Assembly (NCBI GenBank): GCA_905178155.1
Contig: CAJINV010000004.1
Coordinates: forward strand, 9,462,625 to 9,526,624
DNA: 64,000 nucleotides
Reading direction: 5' to 3'
DNA from: Amoebophrya sp. A120
Taxonomy: Eukaryota > Protista > Dinoflagellata
Shown here piece after piece: positions 4,301 to 62,090 of the stretch (positions are counted from its first letter, which is position 1; every line of letters starts with the position of its first letter). Under the pieces are notes generated by a model. The model was not told where the DNA came from. It searched no databases and saw nothing but the letters and a program-made list of their open reading frames with translations. Made by a program: the position numbers and the translations under genes.

Positions 4301-6576
4301 TTCGCCGGCAACCCTGGCACCATCCGCCCCAGCGTTCCGCAGATAGAGGCCAGCCTCGAGGCTAGCGACCGCGCGGGCTCTGCGTTGCACAAGCAAGAGA
4401 GTGTGTTGCACAAAGACGTGAACTTCATCGAATGGCACGGGGCTCCGGAAGTTTTTTCTCAGCTGACTACTTTTCACGCGACAGCGAGGCTTAATGAAGA
4501 ACACGCGGCGGCAGAACTCCGCTACGCACGTTTTCGGCAGCTGGTCACAGGGTTGCTGGCGGGCCACACGACCCTGTCCGAGAACGACCAGAGCTTTCTC
4601 CTCGAGTTCATCAAGCCATCTGACCAGACCCCCCCTACGGAGGTTGGGAAAAATGACGAGGGGGCCGAAGAGGAAAGAACGCTCTACCAAGTACTAGAAG
4701 ACCGCGAGGCGCAGACCGCAGCCACGGGCTTTCACCAGCTCCACCAGCACGAAAGCGCAAACAGGGCCTCCGAAGGAGATGATGGTGGAGCAGGCCCCAC
4801 CATGGTCACGACCAGGGAGAGCAGTGCCGGCAAGCTGGACGACCTCGTGGAAGATGATCGAGAGCAGACAGAGGACACGAACCCTCGCCCCCGCGCAGGA
4901 CGCAGCGCGCCAGTAACAACTGCGTCGCGAAGTAGTAGGGCAGCAGGGCCGGAGGACGGTTGGAAGGACCTCCGCAGAACGCTGGGTGGAGGAGAGGCGG
5001 CTAATTGGTCTCTGCGTAAAAAAGTCCTCGAGGATGCGGCGTCGCACTGGGACGTTTCGTTTGTCAAGCTTTCCGCAAGCAACCTCTCTGAGGCGTCCGC
5101 GCCCGAATTGTTTGACTTCGTCGCCCATCCGGCGCAGGAAGATCGCGAACAAAACAGTGGAGGAAATAACACCAGGCAAAAAACACTGCCAGCGCTAGCG
5201 GCACTGCCGTCTAACTATGGGGGGCAGGAAGCTGGGCGTGCTGTCGGTGACCTGGTGCAGGATGGCCACTCGCAGCTACTTTTTGAGGCCTCGCTTCTTC
5301 AGTGGCTAGACATCAGCACCAACATCATGGAGCGTTTTTTGGTTAAGAATGACCCACGGACGATTATTCCGGCCCCGCTTCCGGCGCTTGGATGGGAAAA
5401 TTTTACGCGCGGCGGCCATCGCCGTGGCCGCCCCGGGCTCGATGCTCCCGGCAGTGGAAGGCACAGCGGGGTCGTGTCTGCGCTGAATATTACGGACGAG
5501 TTGGAAATCAAGCCGGCTCGCCACGGGTTTTACTTTGATGGCTGGCCGGTCATGGCTGAAGAGCATTTCCAATTTATCCTGGGTAAAAACGTCGCCACCC
5601 CATAGTCAAGTTGGTAAATCTGCTAGACAAATCTCCAAGTTTTGGGAGTCGTGCATGACAAGTTTACATCTGTAGTGTAGTGCTGTTTAGCAAGGACAGC
5701 CGCATCACAAAGACGCCTGCTCATCCTGTTTACAGCATTACAAATCCCAAAACACGACTACAGATTCCTCTCTTGCGGATGTGCATTACAGATTTTTCTG
5801 TGGATGCAAGTCTGCATGACAACTATGGGACAATGGGGGGGCAAAGTGTAGTGTCGCATTTTGTTTAGCATGACAACTACGGGATGGGGACGTTTTTAAA
5901 TAGGATACAACTCGTGGAATGGCTTGGGCGAAGTGGTACACAAATCCAGGACAGCCACTGGCCCGTATCAAATGTAAAAGTGTCTGGGCCTGGAAGAATG
6001 CAACTTGTCATGCTAAATCTGAAGCATGCAAAAATCTGTGTTGCATGATTACCAAAAGTCGCCCAGTTTTGGCCAAGTCGGGAGGGAGTTTCTCACAGAA
6101 TCTGTCATGCTAGGTCCTGCATTCCAGGCTTCGTGGGTCATGGAAAAGCTGCATGACAAATCGCGCATTCTTCCAGACCCAGACACTTTTACATTTGATA
6201 GCCCAGCCTTCAAAACTACACGAAAGCCTCTCAGCAGATTCTGAAGGAGGTCCTGGCCCGACTCGTGAACCGCGCCCGAAGCTTGGCGGCTGTGGGGCTG
6301 GTTCAACAGGAGGACGCGGGGGACCCAGGTCAACGAGAGGAACCTAGCGCGAGGAGCCCAAGCACCTTTACGCCCCAGAAGATTCCAGCCAAGGCCCCGC
6401 TCCTATTCGCTCAGGAGATCCAGATGTGGCACAGAATGCGCAAATTACTTCGCACTAAACGTGAGAACGCGAGATGGCAGCAGAAGCAGCAGCGGAACTT
6501 TTCACGCGATTACGCCGACTGGAATGATCACAGAACGGGTTTGGAGTTCGCGGACTGGTTTACTTCTGATGAATGA
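1365..6576 (+). CDS. Large hypothetical protein, 5' end upstream of the window; exons ~1365-1691, 2076-2390, 3317-5574, 5913-5965, 6206-6576
   Basis: ORFs 1458, 2133, 3308 and 6265 join in frame after removing introners 1692, 5575 and 5966. The 2391-3316 GT-AG join is less certain. No domain recognised. Confidence 0.65.
1692..2070. mobile_element. Family B introner carrying a nested 109-bp insertion
   Basis: TIR tatg..ttctcaaacgttac / gcaacgcttaagaacgccata; TSD cggcg/cggca; colinear with 26183-26421. Confidence 0.85.
2396..3300. mobile_element. Degenerate TIR element forming a ~0.9-kb intron
   Basis: tatacagaagggtgaatttgcagtgaattt pairs with aaattcactacaaattcaccacttctc; right end and TSD not clean. 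Confidence 0.5.
5575..5907. mobile_element. Family D introner (333 bp)
   Basis: TIR tatcct..taaaaacgtc / gacgtttttaaataggata; TSD caatt/caact; homologous to 51658. Confidence 0.85.
5966..6200. mobile_element. Family A introner (235 bp)
   Basis: TIR tatcaaatgtaaaagtgtctggg.ctggaag; TSD gcccg/gccca; frame restored. Confidence 0.9.
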
Positions 6577-7348: not shown

Positions 7349-10300
7349 ATGTCTTACCAAGGACCACCCGGTGCCAGCAGTAGCCACGACAAGCCAGCTT
7401 TGCGGGCACCATCTACATCCTCAGCAAGCGCTATTAAAAACAAGCCCGCGGCCCCACTCCTTCCAAAGCGGACATTACCGAAAATGAGGCCGCAAAGCAG
7501 ACCGACCAGCAGTTCCGGTGGTCTGCCACCACAGCCTGCACATCAACGAGCTCCCGAAAGTACGGCGGGCGATACGGACCACACGCCACGCTCGCACAAG
7601 GAAAAGAAAATCAAAGCTGCGGGGAAGGGGTCAAGACCAGGGACGCCGGTTTCATCGAGAAGTCCCCCGCGCGCAGTTACCTTTGCAGAAGTGGTTCAAG
7701 TTGTGTCGGAAAAAAATAAAAACTATCCCCCGGTTGCGGCGAATAAAAATGGCGCTTCTTCTATAATGGGGGGTTCATCTCCTGTAGAAGCTTTTGCTAC
7801 AACTAATCCAACAAGAAGCTCAAGAACTACATTGAACGCGCAAGAGCCGTCTACTTCATTGAATCAAAATCGAATTATATCGGCAGAAAATAACTCCTCT
7901 TTGTCGTCCACTGTAGCTGCCAACCTTGCGAAGATGAACAACAAGACAAAGGAACAAGAAAAATCCACCCTCTTGACCCACAGCAGCACAGCCCTTGCCC
8001 CGGTGGTAAAAGTGGCGGATTTTGTCGGGGAGCGATGGCAAGAGATAGAGTCGTTGCTCAAGGATCCAGACGCACCTGTACCGGAGCCGTTGAAGCAGCG
8101 CTTGCGGAGGCGAGCGAGAAGTCACAAGCCTTTCACAATTTTGTCTCGGCAAGCGACGAACCGGGACGCGGGGTTCAGGCCCAGGATTACTAATGCCGCG
8201 ATCAGGGACAGGGTGTTGAGGTCGTTGTTGTTGTTGACGCAGCAGCAGATGCAGCAAGCGCAACCTGGTGTGCGGCCAACATTGCCAATGATCCACGACC
8301 ACGACCCAAATGGCGAGAATTATGAAGCGAAAATAATAAAGTCGGAAGGATCTTCAGATGACCTGGAAGATGTTGATCTCGCGAACTTTCGCTTTTCCAC
8401 CTTGGACCGTATCAACAAGAAGAAACATAAAGTCCTTCCACCACGAGAACAATCAGAAGAGGTGTTGGTGGACCTCCGAACGAAAGAGCCAGAAAATGTT
8501 GAAAAATCCCCAAACGAAGTACTAAAGCCCTTCAAGCTTCTCCGGTGCCACAAGCGCCGCGACGCCGTTTTCTCCCACACACTACAACTGTCAAGAACAT
8601 CAAATCCGGAAAATAAAACTAAATGGCTCGGTCTCGCCACCCATGTATGGCACGCGAAACGATTCCACATGGAAACCGTCTGGGGCTGGCGGCTACCGAA
8701 AAATTCCTGCGAGATTGGCGCCCGCGCTGTTTGGCGCAAATGCAAAAAGCAGGGCTTGGTCCTGCACGACAGGTCTTACGCGAGAGTTTTGAAACTTTCT
8801 GCGGCGTATCAAATGTAAAAATGTCTGGGTCTGGAAGATTGCCAGGCTTGTCATGCACGTTTTGCATGACTCCTGATGTCTGTGATGCATGCCCTAGCAT
8901 GACAGATTTTCATTTTGTGAGGGCTTCCGGATGCCTATACCGCATGACAAATGCTGATCTTTCCGTGTAGCAAAGCTTGGACTCTCACTCTCTTTGCTGC
9001 TCATGCAATACAGATTTTTTTAGAATCTAAAATCAGCATGACTAGTTGAATTCTTCCAGACCCAGACATTTTTACAGTTGATACGGCGGCGAAAAAACCA
9101 ATTGTGGACTTGATGCGGGACGCTTTCGGAATTCAGATGAAACACCTAATGGCGAAAAGATATGCACATAAAACTTGTTTTGCTGCAAGAGCAGCCGCGA
9201 CTTCTAAGGACAGCACTGAGGACATCAAAAATTTGAAAACTACAAGAAGTGGTGCCTCTAGTTCCTCTGCCAACATCTTGAAGCGGCCGAAAGCGGGAGT
9301 AGACGCAAAAAAGTCCACGAAGAAGAAGAAATTGAACAAAGAAACGGAAGGGAACTGGCGAGGCCTCGTGGATCTGAGGCGCGGCCGGATGCAGGCACAT
9401 CAAGAACTACTCTCAGTAGGAGCCGACGAGGAGGGTGGACGAGGCTTTTTACATGAAAGCGACAAGGTGGACATGGACCAGAACCAGCTAATCATGAAGG
9501 ACGTGCCGTTCGTTTGGTTTTCTTCTGACGTCGGAAAGAACAATTCATCAACCGAGCAGGAGACCGCAAGAACCTCCTGCCACGACACTTCGTTCGCAAA
9601 AGTGTTCGGGACGACACGGAACAACTCTTCCTCGAGGACGAGGGAGCCACCTCCACAAGGGGAAGATGCTGTTGTTGAACACGCTCTTTTTCTTTGGATT
9701 CACCCAGCGGCGATGTTCGAAGTCCAACAGATGCTTCAGAACGCAGTTGCATCACGACCTGGTGCTGCACCGAAGAAAACAGCTAGTACAGCAGCAGGAT
9801 CTACTGCAATAATAGAGAACCCACCTGCAGCTGGTGGTCGTGCTGCTCCTGGTCATTCTCCTGCTCGACGACGAGAACAAGAACTACATCAAGTCTCAGT
9901 GACCATTTGCGACCATCTGCACACCTTTGAGTTCTTCGGAAATATGGTGAAGAAAGCGATTTTTCCACCGAAATTCTCGAGGACACCTGCTGACGTAGGA
10001 GAGCTAGTCGCGGCGAATCTACCGTACCGGAGGTTCGACCAGGGGGGAGCTGAAGTGATTGACCAACTGCCGGTGGTCATTGTTGATACCAGCTCTAGAG
10101 CCGTGTCTTCAGTGACAACTTCTACGAGAAGTAAGACTATGACCCCCGCCCCTAGTGTTGAGGACCACGACAGCGCGGCAGTAGATGATGAATTTGCTAA
10201 TATTATATCAAAGCGAGAAGTTGTTGTCAACAACCGTTCATCCCTCCCCTCCTGCCAGCTGATCTTTTTCGAGCCGGACCCGGCGAAGGTGCGGCAATTC

Positions 10301-11673
10301 TTCCTTTACTTCAAAATGGAGTGCCTGGCGGAGGTGATTGGGTTCGAGGACCGACACAGGCTGAGAACAGCCTACCTCCAGCCGGAGTTTCCGTTTGATT
10401 TTCCAGAGACAAGAGCTGGCACCGCGTGGCTGCAGAAGAGAGAAAAGGAAAAAGTGGTGGAGTTTATCAAAAAGCCGAAATCGAAACGGGTGAACTACGC
10501 CAAATTCAAGGTCCACTCCCCCTTCTACGGGTTTTGGCCGGATTACGACTTCGAAGTAGATGCGGTCGTGCAGCCGGGAAGTGGTGAAGCTGCTGCTCCT
10601 GCTGGACACAATTGTAGCAATTGTTACATTCCGCTAGAGCGAGACGTGGACTTTCTTCGCCACTACAACAACCACCGAGGAGATGCAGCTGCGAGAAAGG
10701 TGGCATCAAGCGCGAAAGGGAACAATAGAGACGGCGAGGACCAGGTACAACTGTGTCAACAAACTCTGCCAGAAATCGCCAACCTTCGCACAGTCGTGCA
10801 GAGAGACGGAATTCGCTATCTTCCCGGTAGCTGCAAAAACTTTCCGGCAGAAAAGATCCGCGATGTGGTTGCCTGTCGCGTTATCCCAGTGTCGACCGGA
10901 GTGCCCGAACCCTGCACCCATCTTTATGTGATGACGAAAAATGCCGGAGCCGCGCCGGGATTGGACTCTGGAGCAACTGCTGATCAAGCGGCAGGAGCTC
11001 AGGTGCCGATGGACGTCGAGGAGAACGAAAATTATAACGACAGCGCAAGAGGTCCAGCGGCAGTCTCTCATTTTACAAACGGCACAATAAGACGTCGAGG
11101 TAGCGACCAACATCACAAAAACTTCCGCCTCTGCGGCTTCGTTCTTTCCGGTGGTTATTCACATGCCTTTATCAAAAGGAAAAATCCCCCCTCCCCATAT
11201 CAAAACGAGGTCTCTGATGCAGGATTTGCGTACACAAATAAGATTTGTCTTGCTGGAGAGGAATGCAGCCCCATACTAAGCCGAAGTAGAGAGGTTCTGG
11301 CCTAGGCGTCTAGCATGAGAAACGTCCGTGCTGTAGGCCCATCAGCATCACAAACCGCCGGCACAATGCTGCGGAGCTTGTGGAGTTGCCTTCTTGCAAG
11401 ACAGACGTGATCTGAGGTCTCAAATCAGCAACACAAATTTCCGGAAACATACCTTTTCGATATGGGGAGGGGGGATTTTTCCTCCTAATAGCCTTCGGAC
11501 GGGCGATCGGGTTGGGCTTCGTCGAGACAGAGGCTTACTCGGGCTACCTGTCATCTAACCAAGTCGACACTTTCTTGTACATGCGAAATACTACGTCGAA
11601 CTGTTACCACAGGGTTTACGTATCAGCTGATACAGATTTGGGACAGAGAACCAGTAGGAAGGATGTTGGGTAG
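7349..11673 (+). CDS. POP1: RNase P/MRP subunit POP1; exons 7349-8806, 9089-11169, 11496-11673 (~1238 aa)
   Basis: POP1 motif THVWHAKRFHM..WGWRLP and LHDRSY; POPLD-like FPFDFPET.AG..KPKSKRVNY..SPF; C-terminal GFVLSGGYSHAFGRAIGLG appears only after introner removal. Confidence 0.9.
8807..9083. mobile_element. Family A introner (277 bp)
   Basis: Family A TIRs; perfect TSD cggcg; joins KLSAA|AKKPIVDLM. Confidence 0.92.
11170..11490. mobile_element. Family C introner (321 bp)
   Basis: TIR ..ggaaaaatcccccctccccatatc; perfect TSD gcctt. Confidence 0.92.
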
Positions 11674-12226: not shown

Positions 12227-15200
12227 ATGCAGGCTACTTCCAGTGCAATCCGCAGCCCGAACTCGTCCGGGCAGCTGCGGCCGCTGCAAATAGGCAGCTC
12301 CGCCGCAACAAGCAGCACGGCACCACGAGGAGTGCTGCCGCCAGGACCAGTAGCAGAACAACTTCCCGCAGGTGGTGCACCGCCAGCCACAACTATGTCC
12401 TCAGGTGGAGCCACAACTATGTCCTCAGGTGTAACATTTTCCCAGGCCGAGCAAGAGTCCGCGATTGCGGCCCGGCTGGACGCCTTGATTGCGGAGCGGG
12501 TGGAAGCGGAGGTCTCCGCGTACGACGAGTATCTTATGCTGCACTTGACAAACCGGTTTAAGGAAAACGAAGAGAAAATTCTCACACTAGTTGAGGACAA
12601 AGTCATGCGGCAACTGGAGGCGTCGGTCGCCCTCGCAGGTGCAGCTGCACATGATCAAGAAAACGCGAAGACCATCACAGCTGAAGACAGCAAATCAGAA
12701 AATATTAAAGCGTCTCGTACGACCGGAACTACGAGAGATCGGTTTTCCATCGTCGACGCGGACGAAGAAAGTGACGAGGCCGAAATGTTATTAAACAGTA
12801 GGCCGAATAATTCGAGGAAAGTAGACACCGCAACGTCTCCTTTACTGGCGGGTGCACCAGGTGACACCAGTGGTTCATCTCCACCATCGTCCACCTACGA
12901 AGCCGCAAGGATTATGCAGGACATGCGGATTTCCGCCATGGAGCGGCAGATCGAGCAGAAATTGCTGAACGAAGAGAACTACGAACCGCAGAAGTATCGT
13001 ACTCGTATAAATTATGCATGACAAGTTCCCTCAGCATGAGAAATAAAATTTGTAATGAGGATTTACCCTGAGAAAAAAATTTGTAATGCATGACTGCAAT
13101 ACGAGTGCGATGCTTTTGCACAGCATAAGAACGTTTTCGAACAGAAGATCACCGCCGAGGTGAGGAGTTTGAAGCAAACGATCGAAAGTATCAACTGCAA
13201 AAGTGTCGTACTCGTCGTAATTGCAATACTGCATGACAAATCTTCTGTTTTACCTGAATCAGCATGACAAATTCCACTCTTTCTTCTGGGCAAATTTGTA
13301 TTGCAATCTATACTAGTAAGTTACTTTTGCAATGCATGGAATGCCATCACAAGCAATTTCAGGAAAGCAGGAAAAAACAGGAGGTCGAGTTGCTGGAGTT
13401 TCAGAAGCGGATGAAGGCCGAGATGGAGATGAAAGGTATTTAAAAACATAAAAAACGAGGATATCCTTATCCATCGATATTCACATATATTAGAGGACTG
13501 CGTTCTTTAAAGATTCATCGTGTACAGTTTTTTCTACCGAAGTTGCTTTTTCACTTTGGTGTATAGTTTCACGCCTTTTAACTGGATCTGATCCTGCATG
13601 ATCCTGCTGGCGATGTATGGAAAACAATGAAAGTAAAAGTTATTTTCATTCATAACAGCCACGCCGATGCCGGACAAGAAACTTTCCGAGATGACATCCA
13701 CAGCTCCTACAACATCCGCGGAGCACGAGAAACTGCAAGCGAAAATTGCGGAGCTCGAAAGCCAGCTTTCCCGAGTCGTCGAAGGAGTCGATGACCGCTT
13801 GCAAGTATGCATTGCAAATATGTCTGGGTCTGGAAACTTGTGATGCAAGGAAGCGAATAGTGAAAGCACTGTAATGCGATCCCCAGCATGACAAGATTTG
13901 CCGTGGTTCTGAGTTGCGTACTTACACCGCATGAGAAACTGCGTTTTTGCATGACAGGCAAGAGGAGCTCTTCGCGGCCACGCAATACAGAGTTCAGAGC
14001 TATGCCAGACTAGCATGACAAATCTTGCAATCTCCCAGACCCAGACACTTTTGCACTTGATAGCAAGATCTAGCGGACGCCTTGGTCAAGCGGGCGAACG
14101 ACAATCAAAAACAAGTAAACGACAAGATCTACAGTTTGACGCAGGCACAAGTATTGACCCGCAGCGTCCTCCGGAAGGAGAACGATGCCAAGCTGCGGAT
14201 GAATCCGCAGGAGGTGGATGCGAAAGTCCGGAAAATTTTGAAAAAGCTCCTCGCCCAGACCTACGTAAAGACGGAAGAGACGACAAGGGAGTCTGCTGCG
14301 ATTGCGGATCATGCGGCGGAGGCGTTCTCGGACGGAGTACTGGAGACTACTACCTTTGAGCGCGCTACAGTGAAGGACGAGGAAGATGACTCAAGAACTG
14401 CGGGAGCAGCTGACGGCGAACTAACAGCACAGCAGAGCAAGAAGCGCGTTCCCAAGGCAGAAGGCGAGGCGCTCGCGGCTGGCAGTGCCGCGGCGCGGGC
14501 ACGATTGTCTGATTTGGAGTCGCGGGCGATGCAGATGCAGCTGCTATCCGCGATGACGGGCGGGAGCAGCAGTGAAGAACTAGAAGGAGCGACAAATAAA
14601 GTGTTCAACAACAGGGCTATCCTCGGCACGATGAAAGGGCAGCAGGAAGACTTTGAGCGGCAGCCCGAGACGAAGAATTCTACAGCAACCGATGGCACGA
14701 TGGCAGGGCAAACGGACGACTTTCACCGTGAGCCGATGACGAAAGTCTCAGCAAGTACAGTGTTGATGGGTGTACTTAAGTAGGTTCATCGTGTAGAAGT
14801 TGGGTTTAAGTAGTACTCAATTCTTCACAAACGATGAAATACTTCTGCTTTTTTTGTTGTTCCGTAGAGTACCGTCGTGAATAATCTTATACGCGATGGT
14901 ATCGCGATGCTTCAATTGCGTAAGCGGCAACTGCAACAGTTAGCCGCATATCATACCATCGTGGACAATATTATCCAGGATGTTGTTGCTGTCAGAAAGG
15001 AGTGCGATTTAAACATCCGTCATCGCAGCATCGTGCAAAACGTTTTGCGCGAGGGTATGCGTTGTGCTTTTATATACGGGCGCTGCTATGCATCAAGGGT
15101 CCATCACACGATACCACCCTGCAAAATATCTTTCAGCAGGTTATGATGCACGTTCCAGAATGATCGCAATTGTCGTATAATCGTGCAGGACATTCTCCAC

Positions 15201-18200
15201 ACCGCTCTTCTGGTTCTGGTGGTGAAGGTTAAGATTAAGCTTCACGTGCAATTTGTTTCTGGTAGAATAACAACAACAAGTGAAAGAACGACCAATCAAA
15301 TTAACCTCGCAGGTTCCGCCCAGCCACAACAAGCAACCAATGCTGACCGTGTCATCGTGCAGCCGCTCGGAGGTTCTTTCGAGCAGCAGCAACCTGCGAA
15401 TATTAACGTGGAAGATCCTCTCGACGTCTTTAACCGCGACTTGATCCAACGCCCGAAATCGATGGCCGCCGAGGCCATGCGGCGCTTCGGGCAGTTTGAC
15501 TCGACGAGCACCGAGGGTGGTGGAAGCAGCGATAGCATTCGACAGTCCTCCGCCGTAGTCCAGGAAGTATATGCATTGCAAATATGTCTGGGTCTCCTGG
15601 AAGAGTGTAACTTATCATGCTACATCTGGATCGTGAAAAAATTCGTGTTGCATGATTACCAAAAGAGGTCCACTTTTGAACATGTTTAGAGGCAGTTTCT
15701 CATGCAGGAAAGGCATGATAGAGATCTCACAGAACCTGTCATGCTAGGCCGTGCATGCCAGACCGCGGGGGTCATGGAAAACCTGCATGACAAACCTGGC
15801 ACTCTTCCAGACCCAGACATTTTTGCAATCCAAAAAGTAGTGCACACGACGATTGCGATCATCGAACCGGTGATTAGGAAGGAACTCGAAATATGAAATG
15901 CAAAAGCATCGTACTAAGTCTAAGTAGTAATCGCATTACAAATTCGCTCAGCATTACAAATGGAATCTCTCATGCTGATCTGCCTTGAGAAAGAGATTTG
16001 TCATACATAATTGCGATTACTACGAGTACAATAGTTCTGCAATGCATACGAAAGACAGGAGAGCAAATTGAGGAGGACGCTGCAGCGAACGCAGAACGAA
16101 GAGGACCTCCAACTTGGAGGAAAAACACCAGACAGTGGATATGAACAAAAGAAGTTTTCCTTCTTCTTACGCGCAAGTTCCCCGCCACCGATCTCTCTCA
16201 CTAGCGAGTTGAAGGCACAGAGGGAGAAAAACAAACTTCTGCGGTCAAAGACAACGCAGCAGTTTCTAGCGACGTATCGAAACCCGAATCCAGTGGTGGT
16301 CCCTTTTGCAGCTGCTTTTGGAGGTGAAAATAAGAATGGCGTGGGACGAGGAGGAGTTGACCAAGATGATACTCCTGGCACCAGCTCAACATCGCAGCAG
16401 AGTAGGGCGGGCACCGACGTGGTTCTGAATTACGCAAAGTCTTCTTCGTCTACCATCGCAGGCAACAGGCTAACGAGTCCGAGAGGGGGCACAACGAGTC
16501 CGAGAGGCACGACGAGTCCGAGAGGCACAACAAGCCCCAGAGGCACCAGTTCAACTCCTCGAGGGACCACCACGCGAGGGGGTGCAGCTTCAGCCTCAGC
16601 TAGTGCAAGTGCTACAACGGTTACAGCCGCTGCGGATAATAACAACTCCGCCGACCGCAGTATGCAGAGCTTTATGGAAGATAAACACGACCACACGAAG
16701 CTCCGCACCACGGCAAAATCGCAGCTGATGGCCGACGCGATCATCGACGCGTATGCTGCATTAGTTCCCACCGAACAGTTCCGTACAACTTTGGAGGATA
16801 TGCATTGCAAAAGTATCGTACTCGTACTAATTGCATTTATGCATTACAAATCTTTTTGTTAAGGCAAATCCGCATTACAAATTTAATTTGTAATGCTAAG
16901 CCAATTTGTAATGCAATTTATACTAGTACGACTACGATGCTTTTGCATTGCATAGAGGATGTGCAAAATAGAAACATGACGGAAGAAGAAGGAGTATCGT
17001 AAAGAAAAATCCCCCCTCCTCATATTGAAAACGCATCCGTCTGAAAATTTGTGATGCACATTTGTGACCTCAAATCTTGTCTGTCTTGCAAGAAGGCAAG
17101 TCCAGAGAGCCTCCTGCATTTTGCAGGCGGTTTGCGATGCTGTTGGGCTTAGAGCATGCACGTTTGTCATGCTAGGCGCCCACGTCAAAACCTCTCCACC
17201 GAGGCTTGACATATGCCTGCAGTCCTCTACTGCAAGACAGATCTTCTGATTTGTGTACGGAAATCCAGCATCAGAAACTTCGTTTCGATATGGGGAGGGG
17301 GGATTTTTCCTCTTGATAAGGAGTGAAGATCTGGCAGGAAGAGGCGCAGAACGTGTTAGCCCGTCAGTCCGTCCGCGAGGTTTTTCTTACCGAAAGACCA
17401 CTATCAAAATGAAAAATCCCCCCTCCCCATTATCAAAATGGAAGTCTGTAATGCGGGATTTGTATACACAAATCATTTTGTCATGCTAAGAGGGAAAAGA
17501 AAAAGATGCGGACTGTAGTGCTGAATGGCGTGGAACAGCCTTGCAGCTACAGCATGACAGGAGGCAGCTGGAAGTGGGAAACAGCATGACAAACTGCCTG
17601 CAAAAGAGGCCGCGACTGCGCCTCTTGGCCTTCTAGCAATACAAGGCGACTTGCGTACTCAAATACAACATCACAAATTTAGTTTTCGATATGGGGCAGG
17701 GGGATTTTTGTTTTTCCTTTTGATAACCAAAAATCCAAGCCTACGTCGACGCGGAAATCGCCCGGGCGCAGGAAGAGGTCGCGGAGGCCGTGCAGACGGC
17801 GATCCTGCAGGAAAGAGCAGTCACGGAGGGAATGCTGGACAAAATGACGCAAGACTTTGGGAGGACGAAAAGCACCAATATTAGAGACAATAGCTCTACT
17901 CTTGCGCAGGAAGATACGCAGCAGCTGCAAATGGAAATAGCAAATAGGACCCGCTTGTTGTCCTCTTCGCAGGCGTCACCACCGGGCGAGGATGTAGTTC
18001 ATGTGGGGGCAAGAGCAGCGGCCGGCGCTTCATCTTCATTTAGGTCCGCTCTACCACCAGTGGAAAATTTGCCAGATCTTGCGAAAAGGTCGCTTGTTCC
18101 GCAGAACTCTCGCACGGGCACGACTGAGTTTGACAATAAGTTCAATGAAATCGCCGCGAAAGTCGGTGATCTGCAAGCGAAGTTTCGGATATGCAGTGCA

Positions 18201-35783: not shown

Positions 35784-36249
35784 AGTAGAGTGGTGCAGCC
35801 TGGAACTGCGGCTGAGGACCCACCTCCGGATGATTTGTTGATGCTGGAAAGGGTTTGCTCGCGGTCGCAATCAAAGCGAAAAAATTTGAAGTCTTGACAT
35901 TATCTCACCTACGACACCATCTCATGATCTTGAAAATGATTTTCTATTTTTGTCCCAAGAGTCGTGGCAGCTGAGCAGGAAAGCGCCATCCTCGCTGAAT
36001 GTAGATACAGATTTCAAACAAGAACATTGTCGAACGGAAGAAGGAACGAACGCGTGTCAGAGAAATGATTTCATGATGGAAGCCGCGACTGTTTTCTCGC
36101 AGAGGGCCTGCGTAGCCTGGTTGCGCTTTTGTGTTCTACAAACAAAAGTATGAGGAATCGATATTAAAACAAGGCAATGTGGCCTCCAGGAGGCTTCTTT
36201 GTCTGTTGACGAGATGCGATCCGTAGACCCTAAAGCCTAGCACGAGGAT

Positions 36250-48694: not shown

Positions 48695-51600
48695 ATGGGA
48701 GGTGGTGGAGCTCCAGCTCCTGCGCCTTCATCTTCACCTTCCACGAATGAACAGGATGTACTAGTCGTGCCACGACCTGCGCCTGCACCTGGCGCAGAGT
48801 TCGCCGAGAAGCACGAACGCATGCAGGTCCTGGTGGTGGAGGAAACACACGCAAAGGAGCACACGAGAGCGCGCGCGACCGACGTGTGCGAGGAACAAGT
48901 AGAACATCAAGTATCACTATCATCTGCTGTCGCGAGCGACGTTGAGGTCTCGGTGGACGACGTTTTGCGCAAGCGACGCCAGGAGCAAGGGCGATGCTCT
49001 CCCTCCTCCGAGCGCTTCGGATTCCGCTCTGTGTTGAGACACAGCTTATGGGATTCTCCAATGCCGCATTGTGTCTGCTGTTTACTATACATAATTTTGT
49101 CATGCAAGGCTAGCATGCATGAGCACGTTTTGCATACAAATTGAAATTTGTAATGGATCTCCATACTGTTTTTAAGTGTGTCGAGAACTTGCCATCTTTG
49201 GAAGCAGCTTGATAGTGTTGGAAATTTGTTTGAAGAGCAAAAAAAATTTTGCATGACAAACTCATGTAACTATAGCTAGCAATTGCAATGTAATGTTTGA
49301 GACCTCCATACCGCTTTCACAAAACGTTTACCGTCGTCGCCAATTTCTCCAACTCCGTTGATATGCCTTGAAAATTAACCATATCATCCAATTTGTCATA
49401 CAAAACATGGATTGAAGTCGCCTTTCGTCATGCAAAAAGTGGATGGTTAATTTTGATTTTCAGTGCATAGCACAATGCACGTTTCTCCAGAATTGGGCTC
49501 CCACCGTGTTCTTCCCACTTGTCGCCGCTATGATTTGGACCATAATACGGGGGTTAGGGCCGAGAGTGCTCTTTTTCCTCAGTGGATCGTCTGCGGGGCG
49601 GACGTGCGCTCTCACGCCGGCGGCTTTTGATGGTGTCGTGCATTTGCAGACGCAAGGAGAAGTCGAGGCGAATTATGAAGCAGCTGGTGCCATGTTGGAG
49701 GCCATTGGTCCACCGCAGCTCCAGCTTCAAGCAGAAGTAGCGAAAAATATTACTGCAGCAACATCTTCTTCTGGCTCTCCTGGCACAACAGCTGCGTCCT
49801 TTTCGGTGTTTAGCGAGTGTCGCCAGTACAATTGGACGACCACGTCCACGATCACGAACAGCTCATCAACCCAGGTCGTTCAGTTCTTGTGTGGAGCCAG
49901 TTCTATTCCGTCTTTCGGTCAGATTCTTCTCCCGCCACCCCTGTTTTCCGCCTTCTGGGATATTGGAATTGTGTACGGCTTCCACTTGCATTTGCACATG
50001 TTGGGCGCCCGCATCACACACGCTCTTCCGCCCACGGGGGTGCCCGCCGTTTTGTTTTACGGGAGCTCCCTTGTCCTGTGCACGCTCGTCTCGGTCGCGC
50101 TTGGTTTCGCAGATTATGAACTCGTCCTTTCGGGGTGGACGCGGACTTCTGCGATGATCGGATCCGTCGTACTCTTCCTCTCGACCTTTGTTTACGCTGC
50201 GGTCATCGCGTTGCTCAACATCCACAAACGCGAAAGTGATCTGAAAACGACAAGCAAGAGAACGACCACTACACCAAAAGTAAAGATGGAGGCGCTGGTA
50301 CAAATACAATCTGCTATACCTGTATCACCAAGTAAAAATCAGGAAGAACAAGAAGAAGAAGCAAATGAGCAGCGGGTCGTAGGAAAAAATAAAGCGATAT
50401 TCATAGCGTCGACTACGGAACAAGCCGGAGCCCACTCCGACGAAAGAAACAACAGCTATCCGGTTCCGGAGGTTGTTGTCCCGCAAGGCGCGCACAAAAT
50501 AACAGGGTTTGCGAATGCCTTTATCGGCTCACACGGTACCGATAAAACACAAACTGGCAGTGGTGATACAATCGCGAATACAACGGACTCACACAGTTTC
50601 GAAAAGTTTGCGGGGACGAACAATCAAACGGTGAGAAGCGAAGAGGGCGACGCAGGAGTTGTAGTCGCGAGCAAGAATTGTTCTCATTTAGATGTAGAGA
50701 CATCGAAGAACGAGGACACAAAAACGCAAATAAGCGACAAAGAAATGAAGAGCAAGCCGAAACGACGCAACATGTTCGTGACGCCGGCGTTGCGGGGTCT
50801 TTCCGTGTTTGTCATGACTGGTGGACTGACGTTGTGCTTCGGTTCGGTCTTTTTCTTGACGAATTCCATCCTCGTCGAGTTTGTGCTGGATCCGCTTGCG
50901 GCAAATACGGCCATCGCCCTGCCAGTTCGATTGGCGATCGAGCTTGCCATCTCCCTCCTGGTGTTTCTCATCTGGGTCCCCTTGGCGGCGCACTACTGGG
51001 GGAAATCCGTCGCGATTGCGATCTTTGTACCGCTGCCCTACTGGATTTCCGCCGAGGTCTACGAGGAGAGTCAGCAGCCGGGTAGTCATTTTGCCGGCGA
51101 GGGTGATGATGCAAAGCGGGAACGCGAAAAGCAGCGCAAACGCCGCATGAGGGAAACCTTCGAACATATTCCTTGAAAATCAACCATACCCATCCAATTT
51201 GTCACGTAAAACATGAAGGAAGTTCTGTGTTTGTCATGCAGATGCAAAGAAAGAATGGGGATGGTCAATTTTCAGGGAATAGAACAGATTAAGATCGTCT
51301 ACTTCTTTTCGACAGACTTGATTCGCATCACGCTCGGACGGGGTATTTTGATGCGGTACAGTGGGTATTCGGTTTTGCTACTCCTTCTCACCGACTTCGT
51401 CTACCACATGTGGCACTTTGGATTTCGCCAGCGCGAGTCTCTGCTGCTTTTCAGTGTGGTCGCCGCAGCAAAAAATCGCAACGTCCGGCGAATGCAGTCG
51501 ACGCGTTTTCCCGTCTGGTTTCGTGTGATCGACCTGTGGACGCAGTTTCGCAACCGCGCCCCACTCTGGTTCACGATAGGCTGGCATGAGACCTGGGATT

Positions 51601-54600
51601 TCGCGGAAATGCTTAGTATTCGGGAGACCGGGGAAGGGTTGAAGAAAACAACTGACGTATCATATGTAAAAACGTCCCCACACCAGAGTCAAGTTGGGAA
51701 CCTAGGAAGACAAATCCACAAGTTTTGGGAGCCACGCATAAGAAGTTGCAGTCCGTAGTGTAGTGCATGTAAGCAAGGACCACCGCATCACAAATCCATC
51801 TGCTTATCCTGTTTACAGCATTACAAATTCTAGAACTCGATTGGAAATGCCACTCATGGAGATGCGCATCACAAATCTTCCTGTAATCGCAAATCTGCAT
51901 GATAACTATGGGGTGGGAATGGTTTTACTCAGGATATGACGACGATGCGCGGGTCCGGAAGGAAAGAACCGCGAAGACGTACAAGGATCTGACTATATCC
52001 TGTGCAAAAGTATCGTACTCGTAGTAATTGCAATCATGCAATACAAATCTCCCTCTTAAGACAAATCAGCATTACAAATTTCATTTTTCATGCTGAGGAA
52101 ATTTGTAATGCATTTATACCACTGCGATACTTTTGCAATTCATAGACGATGTCTTTCAGCAACGTGCAGGTGATTCTGAAGCGCGTTCCAAACCATGTCT
52201 GGGACGAGATGTTTCCCGATGATCTTTCCATCGGACAGATTACTTCTACCGTCGCCTGCTATCCTAGGGAAAATTTTCACCAGCACGAACTAACATCCTC
52301 TTCTTCAGTTTGTAAATGCAATAGAATCACAATCAGAACCACCAGTGGTTTTACGCGTGCTTATGATGTAATGCTAATGTTAATGTTGTCGTTCTGCATT
52401 ATTACGCATTGATTGAGGTGACGGTGAAGATTTTGTTCAGGATACCAGGGGAAGGAGAAGTACTGAAGAAACTGATCGATCGTCGCGAAGGTCCCACTCT
52501 TCGGGCGCAAGTTTGACGGCCGGAACGCGCAGATCAAACTCGGCGGCGAAGTTGACGAAAACAGGGAGTGACAAGTGGAACGCGAAGGCGGGTCGCGGAG
52601 GTCGACACCATGAAAACTCGCGAAATAAAAAAACACCTGGAGGTGTTGCGCAGATCATAGATGCTGACCTGCGTGCAACGGTCGATCAAAAGCAGGACAT
52701 GTTCCGAGAGACCGTCGATACGCGCGCAACAATGGATTCGCAGTGCGAAATTGTCGATGTGCACGACGAGACCACGCGAGATCGGTTCTCATCGAGGATG
52801 TCGGAGAACAATACGCTCTTGCACTCGCCGGCACGAGTATCAACTGCTCCTTCGGCCGTCTTCTCGTCAACATCTCTGTCACTCACGGAACATCAGAGAA
52901 CGGAGGTTGTTCCCGCTACCGGCAGTGACGCAGCTGCTGCGCAGCTCCGTGGACGGTCGTGCTCCGGAGCAAGTGCGGCGACGGGCTCCAGCAAGCGGTT
53001 ACGGCTTGGACGGTAGTTAGAAATCCCGGCCGCGGATATTGTGCGGATATTATGACTCAAATGGAAAACGTGCGACAGCTTTTCTCTCGTCGCGGCCTGT
53101 GAGTCGAAGTGTTGACGGTGGCAGTAGCTCACCGTCCGAAGATGGTGGTGATCAGTGCGTCAGCTCAGCGAAGCTCCGTGATTGCGTGCAGGAGGAGGTC
53201 GCTCGTAGGTATTTATATTGGAAAATCGGCACGCCGCTATGCGTGTTTGTTTGGTTTCTGCATGGCATGCATTTTGCTACATTTTCGTGATAGTGATGAC
53301 ATGCCTTGAACCAAAAGGCAGAAGGCTTGGCAGGAGCCACGCCACGCAGCGTAGAGGAAGCTACCGCAAAATACATCGAGACGGAAATAGCCAGGCCGCG
53401 GCTGAATGACATCCAGAACGCCTCAGGGTTTAGGTCGGTGCAAGCCCTCCTTCGGCGAAAGAGCCCAAAAGCGCGGGTACTTTTTTGCACGTCAGTAGTG
53501 GGAGCGTATGCTTTCCCTTTTTTTGTAATGCGCCAGACTGCTTGATGATGCCACGTAGATGAAGGGCCCATAAGCATCATGAGCTGACAGAAGCAGTGCA
53601 GCTGGGATTTATCCTTTCTTGCCAAACACCTCGCAGGTCGCCATTGCGCTCGAGCTTGCAGATATCCACTACACCAGAATGATGACGATCAAATTGGCGG
53701 AAAGTGCGCACAAAACGGTGCAAATATGAATTGCAGATACGTCTCTGCCTGGGTGTGGAAATGCAAATATGCGTCGCAAATATGCATTGCAAGTATGCAC
53801 TTTAAATATGCATTGCAAACATGTCTTGCAAATATGCATTGCAAATATGCATTGCAAATATGCCTTGCGAATATGCATTGCAAATATGCATTGCAGATAT
53901 GCAATGTGCTCCGGAGCAAGTGCGGCGACGGGCTCCAGCAAGCGGAGCAGGATTTCCGTGCTCTCATCTACCCCAAATGTTCTCCGGCTCAGCGGTCCCC
54001 ACACATCTACTAGCAGGCCTCCAAGGGCGAAAAGCGCAGACACGTGGGCGCGACGAGCAGGAGCACCTGCGCCAGCAACGGAGCAGACAGCGCGCATCCT
54101 TCCTGAGCACAACGAAGGTGGTGATGCGACTGAAGACGCACGCATGAGGCGTGGTCAAAACAGTGCGCCGGCCGGCTCGGTGGGTCATAGTGCTTCTTTC
54201 TGGAGGTGGAAGCGGCAAAGAAGCGTCGCCCGTCAATTGTCTTCCACCGATGTGCTCCCAGGTAACCCAATCCCGACATCCCGTCTGCCTTCCACATCTT
54301 CTCTGCAGCGCCCGTCGGTTCGCAGTGTTACGAGTCGGCTCAGTTCAGTAGTCCGTGGCGCATCCTCCTTCCGCAGGACCGTGCTTCTGCCCGCGGAGCA
54401 GCACGTGGAGGACGTCTCCGCGTGTGTATTAGCGCACGAGTACGTATATCACACAGAAAAAAGCTAGCAGTGCAAAAGCAAAAAATACATGAAACACCAT
54501 GGTGGCTGCATCGATGAAGATGAGCAACGTTTTTGCATAGCCTATTAGCAATATGCTATGGGCGGCCTCTTCAGGAGACCAGGGACAGACAGTGACAGAT

Positions 54601-55541
54601 ACTTCATATGAGCCCCCCCCGCTAGTTTTTTCTCTACTGGGATAACGTGGACATTTTTCAGGACTTCGTCTGGTTTTACCGCGATACGCTCTTCACGCGC
54701 TACCAGGTGCGCGCCATGGTTCGCATCTTCACTTCCCTGGCCTGGATCTTCATTCCTGCAGTCGCTTTCTTGACCGACATCCGCCACTATCCCGGCTTCT
54801 CTACGGATTTGGTCACTAACGTCGTGTACCCAGTTTCATTTTTCTGCTACGACTATCCTGTGCAAAAGTATCCCACTCGTATTGCAGTCATGCATTACAA
54901 ATCTTTTTCTCAAGAAGGTGAATCAGCAATACAAATTGTATTTCTTTTTCTCATGCTGAGTAATGCATTTATACGCGTGCGATATTTTTGCAATTCATAA
55001 CGACTGCTCCGAGTGGATTACCCTGACTTTTTTTTTCTTTTTCGCCGACGCGGAAGCGAAGCACCGGTTTATATCAAATGCAAAAATGTCTGGGTCTGGA
55101 AGGTTGGAACTTGTGATGCTAACTTTGGACTCTAAAAAAATCTGTATTGCATGACCAGCAAGAGGAGTCTAGTTTGTGCTACGCGGGGAGGGCGTTTGTC
55201 ATGCGGAGTAGGTATCAGGAAGCCCTCTAAAGATATGTGATGCTAGGCCGTGCATTGCAGACATCCTGGTCCATGCAAAACATGCGTGACAAATCTCAGA
55301 ATCTTCCAGACCCAGAAAGTTTTGCATTTGATGGTTTACGTCGCTCTTCAACTCAGCCTTTAAGCAGAAAACCAGCGACCTGCGGCTGGTGTGCATGCTG
55401 CTGGCCGTTTTCTTTGCCGTGCTGTGCTTCGGCACCCGCTGGAACCCGAGGAATCTGCGATTGCTTCGGGCGGATACGGGGATTGCAGATTTATCTTGGG
55501 CAGACGTGCAAAATGTCTGCGCCGAGGCATGGGCGAGGTAA
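48695..55541 (+). CDS. Multi-pass membrane hypothetical protein split by 9 introners and one direct-repeat-bounded insertion
   Basis: ORFs 48533, 49443, 51213, 52149, 52513, 53769 and 54647 chain in frame; several hydrophobic helices; start and stop uncertain. Confidence 0.7.
49047..49310. mobile_element. Divergent family B introner (264 bp)
   Basis: TIR tatgggattctc / gagacctccata; TSD cagct/ccgct. Confidence 0.8.
49362..49469. mobile_element. Family K introner (108 bp)
   Basis: TIR tatgccttgaaaattaacca; TSD decayed (gttga/gcaca) but the +5 rule restores frame. Confidence 0.78.
51167..51281. mobile_element. Family K introner (115 bp)
   Basis: TIR tattcc.tgaaaat; perfect TSD gaaca. Confidence 0.9.
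51658..51936. mobile_element. Family D introner (279 bp)
   Basis: Perfect TSD tgacg. Confidence 0.88.
51996..52144. mobile_element. Family E introner (149 bp)
   Basis: TSD gacta/gacga. Confidence 0.88.
52260..52444. mobile_element. Family L introner (185 bp)
   Basis: TIR tatcct..aaaat.ttcacc; TSD cctgc/ccagg; frame restored. Confidence 0.78.
52999..53905. mobile_element. 907-bp insertion flanked by perfect 40-bp direct repeats of exon sequence
   Basis: gtgctccggagcaagtgcggcgacgggctccagcaagcgg occurs at 52959-52998 and 53906-53945. Confidence 0.8.
53718..53905. repeat. Tandem array of ~13-bp AAATATGCATTGC units
   Basis: Directly visible degenerate tandem copies at the right end of the insertion. 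Confidence 0.88.
54447..54644. mobile_element. Family M introner (198 bp)
   Basis: TIR tatc..agaaaaaa.ctagc; TSD acgta/acgtg. Confidence 0.82.
54854..54999. mobile_element. Family E introner (146 bp)
   Basis: Perfect TSD acgac. Confidence 0.9.
55072..55333. mobile_element. Family A introner (262 bp)
   Basis: Perfect TSD gttta; ends ATG. Confidence 0.9.
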
Positions 55542-56355: not shown

Positions 56356-59300
56356 ATGCAACTACTTCTGCACATTCTAGCATCAACAGCCAACGTCGCA
56401 AACGCCTGGACCGACACGGGACACATGATAGTGGCCAAAATTGCCGCGGACGGGCTGATATGAATTGCAAATGTGTCTGGGTCTGGAAGGTTGCAACTTG
56501 TGATGCAAATTTCACACAACACAAAGATCTGTGATGCATGAACGGCAAATGCGGCCCAAAACTTGGCACCAAAACAGGGAATTTGTTATGCGGATTAGGG
56601 ATGGGGACACCTTCTCAAGACGTGTGATGCTAGGGCCTGCATGCCAGACCTCCCAGATCATGCAAGAGCAGCATGGCAAATATCTGGACCCATCCAGAGC
56701 CAGACATGTTTGCATTTGATAGCTGAAGCCGGAGGAGCTCTCGTTTTTCCACAATTTGACGGACATGCTGTACCACCCCTCGGTGAAATATCCAGGAAAA
56801 AACACCCCTCCCCATCCAAATTGTAGTCATGCGAAACATGCATAAACTCCAGTGTCTGTCATGCAAAAAATGGATGTGGATGGATGTTTTTTCCTGGATA
56901 TGAAAGCAGCGCGCACCGGGGACTTTGTGAAGCCGGTGGACACGCTGTGGGGCGTGGCCAGCTGGAACGATAATATTGACATCGCGTATTTTTACGAGGA
57001 AGTTTTTGATGGTGCCAAAAGTTCTGCATCAACACGTCGGAAACGAAGAAATTTGCGACTCTGCTGTTCTTTCAGCTGCCGTGCCGCATCACTTAACATG
57101 TTGACGCGCGCGCGCCCACGCATTTCTCCATGCAGCACGAGCGCCGTTGGCCCCCTATCTTTCCTGCCTTTGCCGCGCCGCATTGCGCCTTCGCCGCCAC
57201 CGGCATTTTCCGTTTTGTTCAAAATAGCAGGTGATGATGTTTGCATTGACGCCGCCGGCACTGCGATTATTTCAGTCGCTAAGCACAGTCGTTCATCTCC
57301 TCCCCATTTGATGTTTCATCTGTTGCGTATGTCAAAGAAGATGAAGATGAAGAGAACACTGAAGCTGAACGAACAAGAAGATAAAAATCATGATCAACAA
57401 CTCTTATCAGGTTCCACTTTCAGAAAACGTGGCACTTTACCGACACGGTGGTGCGGCTCGACAAGGGCTGTAGATTGATCGGCGACGGACAGAAGATACC
57501 TGCTGCAGGAGGGCCGCATCTTCAGGAGGCTGGGAAGATGATCGCAAACAGGACAACAATCAGCCCGCTGCTGTCAACGTCGTCCACGACTCCCAGGGCC
57601 GCCGCGGTGCACGAACTCAACAAGGGGCACCAGCAGCACGTCGACTCCACGACGCCGAGGGCGGTCGGCAAAAGCGAGACGGGGCTGAGAAGTCTCCTCG
57701 GTGAAAAAGACAAAGAAGAAAATGACAAGCAGATGATGTCGATGAGTACCGACTACGGGGGATCAAACACAAACACCTGCGACAGCACCCACCCGCCCCG
57801 GCCCGACGAGAAGCACCAGGACGTTATCTACGGCCTGACCTCTGCCTACTACGGAGTGACCAGCGAGTATGGGTGTGTCAGGATCGAAAACGTCAAAGTT
57901 GAAATGATTTTTAATAATGCATAAAATGCATGACCCGAGGTACGTGTGTTGCAGAGCAGGCAATGGAGGCCGATTGTAAGCCTGTTTGGGGTTACAGCTC
58001 GAGCTGCTAAAGTAGCATGAGAAAATCGCTCTTCTTTGCCTCAACAGCATTACAAACTGGATTTAGTGACCACCGAAATTTGTCATGCGCCACTTCAAAA
58101 CTGGGTTCCAACTGGCATCCATTTTATGCATGACAAATCATTTGAACTTTGTCGATTTCGATGCTGACAGTTCCATAGCGAGGTGAGCAAGTGGAATGAC
58201 CCGGCCATCAAGAAGTTTCAGCAGGCGTGGTGGATTATGAAATGCAAAAGCATTGTACTAGTATACATTGCATTACAAATTAGCTATAGCTCAGCATTAG
58301 CATTACAAATGAAATTTGTAATGCTGTTTTACCTTTAGGAAAGAGATTTGTCATGCATAAACAGCAATTACTACGAGTGTGATACTTTTGCGGTGCATAT
58401 GGATCCGCATGCTGATCCACTTTCTCGGCGACCTGCACCAGCCCTTGCACGCCGCCGCGGGCTGCAGCGCGCGCCACCCAGAGGGGGACCTATCAAATGT
58501 AAAAATGTCTGGGTCTGGAAGATTCTGACACTTGTCATGCACGTTTTGGATGAGCCCTGATGTCTGTGATGCATGCCCTAGCAGCACAGATTTTTTGAGA
58601 GCTTCTTGATGCCTAAGTTGCATGACAAATGCCCTCTCCGCGTAGCAAGAATCACATTCCCTTTGGTACTCATGCAATACAGATATTTTTGGAATCCAAA
58701 TGCAGCATTACAAGTTGGACTCTTCCAGACCCAGACATTTTTACATTTGATAGGACCGGGGCGGAAACGAATTTGGGATCGAGACGAACATTAAGAATTA
58801 CTTCGAGGGTATGGAATGCAAATATGTCTGGGTCTGGAAAGTTGTGATGCTAAAAGTGAATGAGATTTCCACTGCAATACGGAGCCAAGCATGACAAATT
58901 TTTTGGCTGCCATGTCTTACGTATTCCGCGTGGCAAACTGCGTTTTTGCATGAAAGGTAAGACGGCTTTTTCGTGTCTACGCATCACAGATTCTTGAGTC
59001 GTGTCAGACTAGCATGACGAGTCTCGCAATCCCCCAGACCCAGACATATTTGCAATGCATAGAGGGAAGGGCGACCTTCGTCTCGGAGCTGCACTTGCTC
59101 TGGGACTTAGCGGGGGGCAGCTACGCCGCGGGACCGAATTGGCCGCTGAACGCCACGGGAGAGGCCTTCGTGGCGGAGGAGGCCAAGGTACTAGTACTTA
59201 CTTCGGTTCCGTTTCGCGTTGGTATGTTTCTCTCTTCGCAGCGCCGTGATGCAGCCGAGCATTTCGAATTCGTAATAAAATCGTTGCACCCCCGGTCCTC

Positions 59301-62077: not shown

Positions 62078-62090
62078 GAGGAGCTGGGGC

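Follow-up and report, generated by a model that had tools for sequence, protein, structure and literature searches.

Amoebophrya introners cluster within a broad 31-80 nt band rather than at a fixed 50-nt step

How new introns pick their insertion sites is an open question. We examined a window of 64,000 nt of Amoebophrya sp. A120 DNA (contig CAJINV010000004.1, positions 9,462,625 to 9,526,624 of the forward strand), in which close introner neighbours cut genes into tiny exons. In an initial annotation the recurrence of exons of about 50 nt had been attributed to a protein footprint of about five helical turns that phases insertion next to an existing element. We annotated 44 elements with TIR and TSD in the window (range 5575-59061; 4 were added by hand) and took exon length as the TIR-end-to-TIR-end gap minus one 5-nt duplication. 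The features are listed below, with families in brackets, + for the plus strand and spacings in nt.

5575-5907 (F4) and 5966-6200 (F0), +, element pair, spacing 53
8807-9083, +, lone element with F0-type TIR, POP1 gene
11170-11490, +, lone element with F3-type TIR, POP1 gene
12980-13127 (F1) and 13189-13338 (F1), +, element pair, spacing 56
13806-14062, +, lone element
15570-15834 (F0) and 15892-16048 (F1), +, element pair, spacing 52
16799-16954 (F1), 16995-17318 (F3) and 17402-17725 (F3), +, element triplet, spacings 35 and 78
18190-18336, +, lone element
19454-19610, +, lone element
19616-24765, +, coding stretch without elements, 5.15 kb
24766-25018 (F0) and 25075-25309 (F6), +, element pair, 51-nt micro-exon present in spliced contigs
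26183-26421, +, lone element, skipped together with 5 nt in spliced contigs
27732-27887 (F1) and 27944-28110 (F9), +, element pair, 51-nt micro-exon present in spliced contigs
28116-31889, +, coding stretch without elements, 3.8 kb
33453-33661 (F2) and 33695-33959 (F0), +, element pair, spacing 28
34708-35031 (F3) and 35074-35337 (F0), +, element pair, spacing 37
41146-41372 (F5) and 41425-41676 (F0), +, element pair in a DEAD-box helicase gene, spacing 47
41818-42026 (F2), +, element 136 nt past the preceding one
44193-44304, +, lone short element
46158-46279 (unclassified, TSD 3/5) and 46316-46566 (F0), +, element pair, spacing 31
49047-49310 and 49362-49469 (decayed TSD, hand-added), +, element pair, spacing 46
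51167-51281, +, lone short element
51658-51936 (F4) and 51996-52144 (F1), +, element pair, spacing 54
52260-52444 (unclassified, TSD 3/5, hand-restored), +, element 110 nt past the preceding one
54447-54644 (unclassified, hand-added), +, lone element
54854-54999 (F1) and 55072-55333 (F0), +, element pair, spacing 67
56459-56721 (F0) and 56789-56900 (F8), +, element pair, spacing 62
57868-58177 (F7), 58236-58399 (F1), 58491-58752 (F0) and 58810-59061 (F0), +, chain of four, spacings 53, 86 and 52

The window elements are genuine TIR introners with TAT...ATA ends and a 5-nt target duplication. They are repeated, hairpin-forming (fold z = -7.75 for one pair) and fall into 11 families, whose consensus termini start with TAT followed by seven variable nucleotides and at least three A; families F5-F7 keep the TAT start with a weaker A run. 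Each member of the pair at 24766-25018 and 25075-25309 forms a separate hairpin. Among 427 first-pass elements of the sister-strain loci described below, the duplication matched at five of five positions in 310 and at four in 87, using a caller that demanded a TSD match for most calls and made 2 chance calls in 242 kb. A duplication length of 5 nt was obtained from flanks and from spliced joints alike. At five sites the transcript-like contigs from runs X3 and X4, taken as RNA by guess, skip the element plus 5 nt, and they include the 51-nt and 50/51-nt micro-exons of the window. Excision at GT-AG is possible for only 11 of 264 perfect-duplication elements, and a special splicing route is therefore needed. 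Searches of Rfam and of a viral collection gave no matches, a prokaryote collection gave three single matches, and raw reads of run X8 fell on repeats only. A transposase was not found, and visual inspection of four longer elements revealed no transposase-like frame. Element lengths appeared to form a 52-nt ladder, which we set aside without a formal test, family medians of 226, 236 and 280 filling its gaps; spacing was unrelated to the length of the neighbouring element.

By their described features the elements match the published Amoebophrya A120 type (Farhat et al. 2021, PMC7789003), which has inverted repeats of TAT, seven variable bases and an A run, direct repeats of 3-5 nt (5 bp in the legend of Fig. 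S19), non-canonical splice sites, a mean length of ~240 nt, many families and no transposase. The abstract and sections 5, 10, 11, 12 and 16 of that paper mention no spacing, 13/15-nt target motif or subterminal array. For A120, a total of about 30,000 elements is reported. Published coordinates (Dataset S3 of PMC12130899) comprise 16 positions in one gene, with no lengths given, and were left out of the counts.

The ten headline exon lengths of the initial annotation (53, 56, 52, 51, 51, 47, 46, 54, 53 and 52) were all exact by our annotation, as were the further lengths of 28, 31, 35, 37, 62, 67, 78 and 86; a claimed spacing of 24 is absent from it, so that 18 of 19 spacings were exact. Gaps of 100 nt or less made up 18 of the 43 in the window, where uniform placement gives 3.4 and never more than 12 in 20,000 simulations, and 10 gaps of 46-56 nt were found where 0.37 were expected. 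Clustering of the elements far exceeds chance. The stretches 19616-24765 and 28116-31889 contain neither an element nor a motif, as had been reported; they are ordinary, since 0.75 (5.15 kb) and 1.9 (3.8 kb) such stretches are expected with clusters as the unit. Neighbours had also been described as mostly of different families. This holds for 15 of the 18 window pairs, but it differs little from what a random mixture of the 11 families would give: same-family neighbours numbered 20 of 104 in large segments (23.3 expected, P=0.23) and 20 of 117 when small F0-centred loci were included (27.6 expected, P=0.036).

Clustering recurs in the sister strain (540 kb, 449 elements), represented by 169 loci that came from 10 of the 64 parts of a single scan, all picked by the F0 terminus. 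Calls were revised before counting, with 18 first-pass calls dropped and 39 added; known miscalls at L018 289-840, L040 6003-6554 and L018 6260-6632, each comprising two F1 copies, were kept, and a strict recount used 199 of 314 gaps. The spacing distribution was not exponential, in line with the initial annotation. A sharp peak at ~50 nt did not hold as a general rule, sister-strain gaps being flat from 31-32 to 80 nt; a 52±4 peak was ~150 AIC units worse than a flat band. The best-fit floor was 31-32 nt. A floor plus exponential was level with a box in a coarse fit, while finer fits gave a box plus tail an advantage of 11-12 AIC units and placed a step at 80 nt (post hoc P=0.0005). No period of 10.5 nt was present in raw gaps or in gaps counted off the subterminal motif. 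Orientation and family had no overall effect on spacing (Kruskal P=0.16), and no asymmetry by transcription direction was seen (67 versus 57). Family F3, one among 11 families looked at, differed between its left and right ends (P=0.006). The spacing is a broad 31-80 nt band rather than a fixed 50-base step. The earlier observation is partly confirmed and its interpretation partly supported, in that the spacing is short-range, lies below the nucleosome repeat and is tied mainly to neighbouring elements.

This tie was seen when gaps within the same exon were compared with shuffles. Gaps of 30-80 nt accounted for 100 of 200, against 29-34 in shuffles, and gaps below 20 nt for none, against 14-17. 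Using a sequence-weighted null built from the target motif, GC and codon-position T (AUC 0.84), gaps of 30-80 nt averaged 33-44, with a maximum of 63 in 200 runs. A sequential simulation matched the data when insertion was boosted 5-7-fold next to elements but only ~2-fold next to predicted GT-AG introns; raising the latter to 7-fold would yield 68 cases, against 32 seen. Exon boundaries came from a self-trained gene model, in which some missed elements are mislabelled as GT-AG introns. A neighbour at 25-85 nt was found for 203 of 605 element ends and for 18 of 141 motif-free GT-AG intron edges; random exon points had one in 7.1% of cases. No excess of elements was found at gene ends (13 versus 12). 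Most of the band is specific to elements; beside GT-AG introns it is diffuse, at about 2-fold, and at gene ends it is absent. DNA with a GC content under 45%, 25% of the total, holds 11 of 388 sites; this avoidance is opposite to what purifying selection would leave, which argues that insertion bias dominates generally. A test on non-coding DNA failed, because gene-model misses are among the 42 sites that lie outside predicted coding sequence (L012 looks like minus-strand coding DNA by eye). Element pairing varied by family (P=0.024) and was rarer for unclassified elements (12/35 versus 184/292, P=0.002).

Two motifs emerged as new side findings. The target motif consists of T at -15, G at -13, C at +13 and A at +15 from the duplication centre; the subterminal motif is common to all 11 families, its copies 31-32 nt apart and placed some 42 and 73 nt inward of each element end. 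The gap floor of 31-32 nt equals both the span of the target motif (31 bp) and the spacing of the subterminal motif. No link was found between gap and motif depth and, together with the absence of helical phasing, this leaves a rigid protein ruler unsupported. Motif number in classified families was the same for paired and isolated elements (3.01 versus 2.90, P=0.48), with a weak trend across all elements (rho 0.12, P=0.03), and predicted GT-AG introns with the motif showed no significantly greater attraction than those without it (15/84 versus 18/141, P=0.33).

We lean somewhat toward the explanation that new copies insert beside protein-bound residents, giving the 31-80 nt excess, with the motif comparisons above counting against it. 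A resident introner bound by protein would draw the next insertion into adjoining DNA, and one shared putative transposase may bind the subterminal motif. The 31-nt floor could be where the incoming 31-bp target footprint abuts the resident-bound protein. Selection against tiny exons may help to set this floor; such selection is indicated by the exclusion zone below 20 nt, which is also present beside GT-AG introns (0/108 versus 8-10). The 80-nt edge may reflect how far a flexible tether extends, or how wide an open patch the bound element maintains at its side. Clusters would grow element by element, at free ends.

Growth at a constant rate per cluster accounts for the cluster sizes (165/75/16/6; P=0.45) better than independent gaps do (P=0.024). 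At one locus (L056), record 7 of run X1 retains the 42-nt exon together with the terminal part of element 19607-19762 but lacks the neighbour 19810-20061 plus 5 nt. This strain polymorphism, a single case of gain or precise loss in a run whose nature is not on record, presents a pair with members of differing history and is compatible with sequential insertion. Record 5 of the same run spans a shared pair, and the strains therefore share at least some insertions. Simultaneous double insertion was also considered and rejected, no age concordance being found within pairs.

The main rival, which we judge unlikely, is splicing selection: insertion would be unbiased, a non-canonical intron would be better removed with a neighbour 31-80 nt away, and exons below ~30 nt would be purged. 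It accounts for an exclusion zone at elements and GT-AG introns alike and for the ~2-fold excess beside GT-AG introns, and it suits the need for a special splicing route, U1 being undetected in Amoebophrya genomes (PMC7789003, section 10); the common subterminal motif could be read as RNA. However, it requires an 80-85% purge of isolated versus paired insertions, yet 165 of 262 clusters are singles, and lone elements do get spliced (26183). The TIRs of isolated elements are no better (21.5 versus 21.1 of 26, P=0.26), micro-exons show no clear frame-preserving excess (70/52/51 by length mod 3), and the avoidance of AT-rich non-coding DNA points to strong insertion bias. Less probable again is that short, accessible, linker-like patches of host chromatin were hit repeatedly, the first element not being causal. 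Linker-biased insertion is published for Micromonas and Aureococcus introners (PMC9860276), all-pair distances have a weak bump at 180-220 nt (31 versus 18.6), and short-short runs fall below permutation (29 versus 40, P=0.007); the sequential model, however, gives a short-short count of 30.6±5.8 against 26. A uniform patch would give a triangular distribution, 8 AIC units worse than the box, and triplet spans exceed 100 nt in 19 of 30 cases, reaching 157. No dinucleotide period of 10 nt was found around sites, and Amoebophrya has DVNP, the acquisition of which has been tied to loss of nucleosomes (10.1101/2024.02.09.579734).

That a footprint fixed at about five helical turns produces a narrow ~52-nt peak, at least in the strain of the window, is very improbable. 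In the window 10 of the 16 gaps within 31-80 nt do fall in 46-56, for which a scan gave P=0.011 against a flat band and P=0.022 against the loci distribution, and a narrow peak fitted to the window alone is no more than 1 AIC unit behind the best model. But this window was chosen for its conspicuous pattern, the two strains have at least some insertions in common, and strict sister-strain gaps placed 19 of 86 in 46-56 nt, against 18.9 expected from a flat band, with a best-fit weight of zero for an extra spike at 52. Clustering by local hopping, in which an element copies itself nearby, or by target sequence alone is largely refuted, and we give it almost no credence. There is a genuine target motif, and the coding DNA that holds the sites is slightly richer in T (0.254 versus 0.213 at codon position 2), yet the sequence-weighted maximum of 63 stays below the 100 observed; same-family neighbours are not enriched and do not resemble each other more closely than distant members do (best alignment score 0.58).

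The elements and their spacing have partial parallels in other systems. Introners of Micromonas and Aureococcus, as described in PMC9860276, likewise have TIR and TSD, create introns, are enriched in genes and in GC-rich DNA and show a positional bias on the 100-nt scale; their cue is host nucleosome linkers, whereas here the cue follows resident elements, with no period of nucleosome length and with indirect period tests that were negative or weak. Dictyostelium TRE5-A, according to its description, also inserts a short way (~50 bp) from a protein-bound landmark; it is a retrotransposon with a narrow window, tethered to host TFIIIC/IIIB. In contrast, ours is a DNA element whose landmark is likely its own kind, and its 50-nt-wide band is flat over 31-80 with no narrow window near 50 bp. 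In IS911 and IS26, as presented in PMC7986276, the transposase similarly engages a resident element end in target choice; those systems react at the end itself, and for IS26 identical sequences at the reacting ends are described, while here insertion lies 31-80 nt off with its own 5-nt duplication and different families adjoin. The TAY-start termini of the IS3EU superfamily (PMC12730594) are also similar, although the fungal members described there have 6-bp duplications and TAYGG ends, versus 5 bp and TAT[CG] here.

We tentatively raise, as a possibility we doubt, a self-nucleating intron invasion in which one putative transposase would use the motif array common to all families and treat residents as landing pads 31-80 bp away, so that exon sizes in a nucleosome-poor genome would be set by transposase geometry and not by splicing. 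The published nucleosome-linker rule for introners may not hold in dinoflagellates. The band, the 31-bp target motif and the common putative binding-site array provide handles on the mobiliser and the splicing route. For two Symbiodiniaceae, Table 1 of PMC7789003 gives median exon lengths of 51-53 nt, with no link to the present elements shown; insertion adjacent to residents would be a testable route to very short exons.

By gene model, the window is eukaryotic coding DNA on the + strand, with genes for POP1, a DEAD-box helicase and a predicted protein of ~5,300 amino acids (12227-31889) that carries 15 elements and gave no Pfam match above the cut-off in a scan of five frames. Short elements break up its genes; these have terminal inverted repeats (TIRs) of the form TAT[CG]...[CG]ATA and a 5-nt target duplication. 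We annotated 44 of these between 5575 and 59061, 40 by script and 4 by hand. Across 14,061 nt containing 12 elements, excising each element with 5 nt left a single stop, although excision of 2 or 8 nt would preserve frame too. At five sites the element plus 5 nt was exactly skipped in transcript-like contigs from sequencing runs X3 and X4. Introners have already been described in Amoebophrya A120 (accessible part of PMC7789003), and the present elements match that type on described features rather than on sequence. Broken or one-ended remnants at 1243-1363, 1695-2070 and 45940-46100 were excluded from spacing counts.

The initial annotation had proposed that introners pair across ~50-nt micro-exons. 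On re-annotation, 18 of its 19 spacings were reproduced exactly, while 24 nt was absent from the annotated gaps; a 51-nt exon at 25019 and a 50/51-nt exon at 27888 both occur in spliced contigs. Close pairing was upheld, with 18 of 43 gaps at ≤100 nt compared with 3.4 expected, and clustering still exceeded chance when targetable DNA was reduced to 20 kb. Long element-free exons and neighbours of different families were present as described, but the former are as expected from 26 clusters placed at random and the latter are near random expectation.

For an independent test, a scan with the terminus of one family yielded 169 loci on JACKZZ01 contigs, merged into 155 segments (539,936 nt) without overlap with the window genes. 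We assign them to a sister strain because runs matching the window exactly diverge ~1-3% from one locus, L056. Across these segments we counted 449 elements, and 176 of the 391 end-to-end gaps were ≤100 nt. The clustering is real and was replicated in the sister strain. In successive 10-nt bins between 20 and 130 nt, the gaps numbered 4, 30, 35, 29, 32, 26, 7, 10, 8, 7 and 6, over a background of ~3. Gaps of 30-80 nt fit a uniform distribution (P = 0.83), and the 46-56 nt range held 33 of 173 short gaps and, in a stricter subset, 19 of 86 versus 18.9 expected. The best-fit model had a floor at 31-32 nt, a box up to 80 nt, a low tail and zero extra spike; no 10.5-nt period was found in the gaps. 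Thus the peak near 50 nt, previously ascribed to a footprint of about five helical turns, was not replicated. The tight group in the window is unusual under the sister-strain distribution (scan P 0.011-0.022). We read it as a fluctuation that drew the annotator's attention; a sub-peak specific to the window's strain is possible.

Using exon and coding calls from a self-trained gene model, 346 of 388 sites fell in predicted coding DNA, which makes up 58% of the sequence. Half of the same-exon gaps (100/200) were 30-80 nt, compared with 29-34 after shuffling, and none was <20 nt, compared with 14-17; a null weighted by target sequence failed to reproduce this pattern. Beside predicted GT-AG introns, part of which are missed elements, the excess was smaller (32 versus 18-21.5) and diffuse across 30-200 nt, and gene ends had no excess of nearby elements. 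A sequential model required a 5-7-fold boost beside elements and ~2-fold beside GT-AG introns. Pairs were commoner than chains relative to independent gaps, and cluster sizes fit a constant growth rate per cluster. Neighbours are not copies of one another, and they showed neither a match in age nor an ordering by transcription direction. At L056 one member of a pair is absent from run X1, leaving one duplication; this single case, from a run whose kind is not on record, fits stepwise build-up.

At empty sites the preferred bases were palindromic about the duplication centre, with T at -15 and G at -13 on one side and C at +13 and A at +15 on the other, each at 44-51%. The duplication centre lay on codon position 2 at 159 of 335 coding sites, an intron phase bias that T at -15 would favour. 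The motif WGCAWNACARRT is shared by all 11 families. Its density is 14.3 per kb in elements and 0.12 per kb in coding DNA, and copies typically lie 31-32 nt apart, ~42 and ~73 nt in from each end. The subterminal motif was also seen at 84 of 225 predicted GT-AG intron edges (a density of 3.15 matches per kb, compared with 0.45 near gene ends), including those of 33190-33413 and 34142-34297 in the window and many in the loci; several begin GTATA and end ATCAG. Part of these introns are missed elements, and others may be old element-derived introns.

Nested insertions were rare, with three candidates among 449 elements although elements make up 17.5% of the DNA. These and other repeat-like features are as follows.

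Candidate nested insertions and other repeat-like features in sister-strain loci (L) and the window
L019:1603-2034, L034:10304-10760, L066:571-1051: candidate nested insertions, ~38, 61 and 73 nt inside the element end
L023:505-1608, L032:632-1465, L018:1537-2349, L002:5695-7582: longer TIR-bounded segments, 0.8-1.9 kb
Window 62089-63462: 1374-nt foldback element with a 5-nt duplication; its terminal inverted repeats are ~470 nt long and 70% identical
Window 53749-53917: tandem array, 13-nt unit matching the start of the F0/F1 family terminal repeat
Window 36240-37800 and 400-1100: blocks of high GC content that stand out from neighbouring genes

Only the L019 candidate had a clean inner TIR and duplication. 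Two of the four longer segments had a perfect duplication, and no transposase-like frame was seen in them by eye. The foldback element has ends unlike the TAT type and no match among the sister-strain loci. Window 778-1244 matches L002:1-470 at 94%, and the GC-rich block there is likely another repeat.

No report of the spacing rule was found in literature searches covering mostly open-access papers, nor by term searches of the accessible text of PMC12130899 with its supplement, PMC11282704 and the Farhat supplement (PMC7789003), nor in the accessible parts of PMC9860276 and the Roy preprint. This is a known element type whose spacing rule has apparently gone unreported.

Selection on splicing as the shaper of the spacing is a live but less likely alternative. 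Selection on exon size probably does contribute to the floor, since the floor is also present beside GT-AG introns. Hot patches of the host genome, as the source of the spacing, are a live alternative too, slightly less likely again. A rigid protein ruler is disfavoured, given no phasing, no link to motif depth and no difference in motif count between paired and isolated elements within families. Most likely, a putative shared transposase would occupy the motif arrays of resident elements and, once bound, might capture incoming complexes or hold the flank open; the floor would then correspond to two 31-bp footprints side by side.
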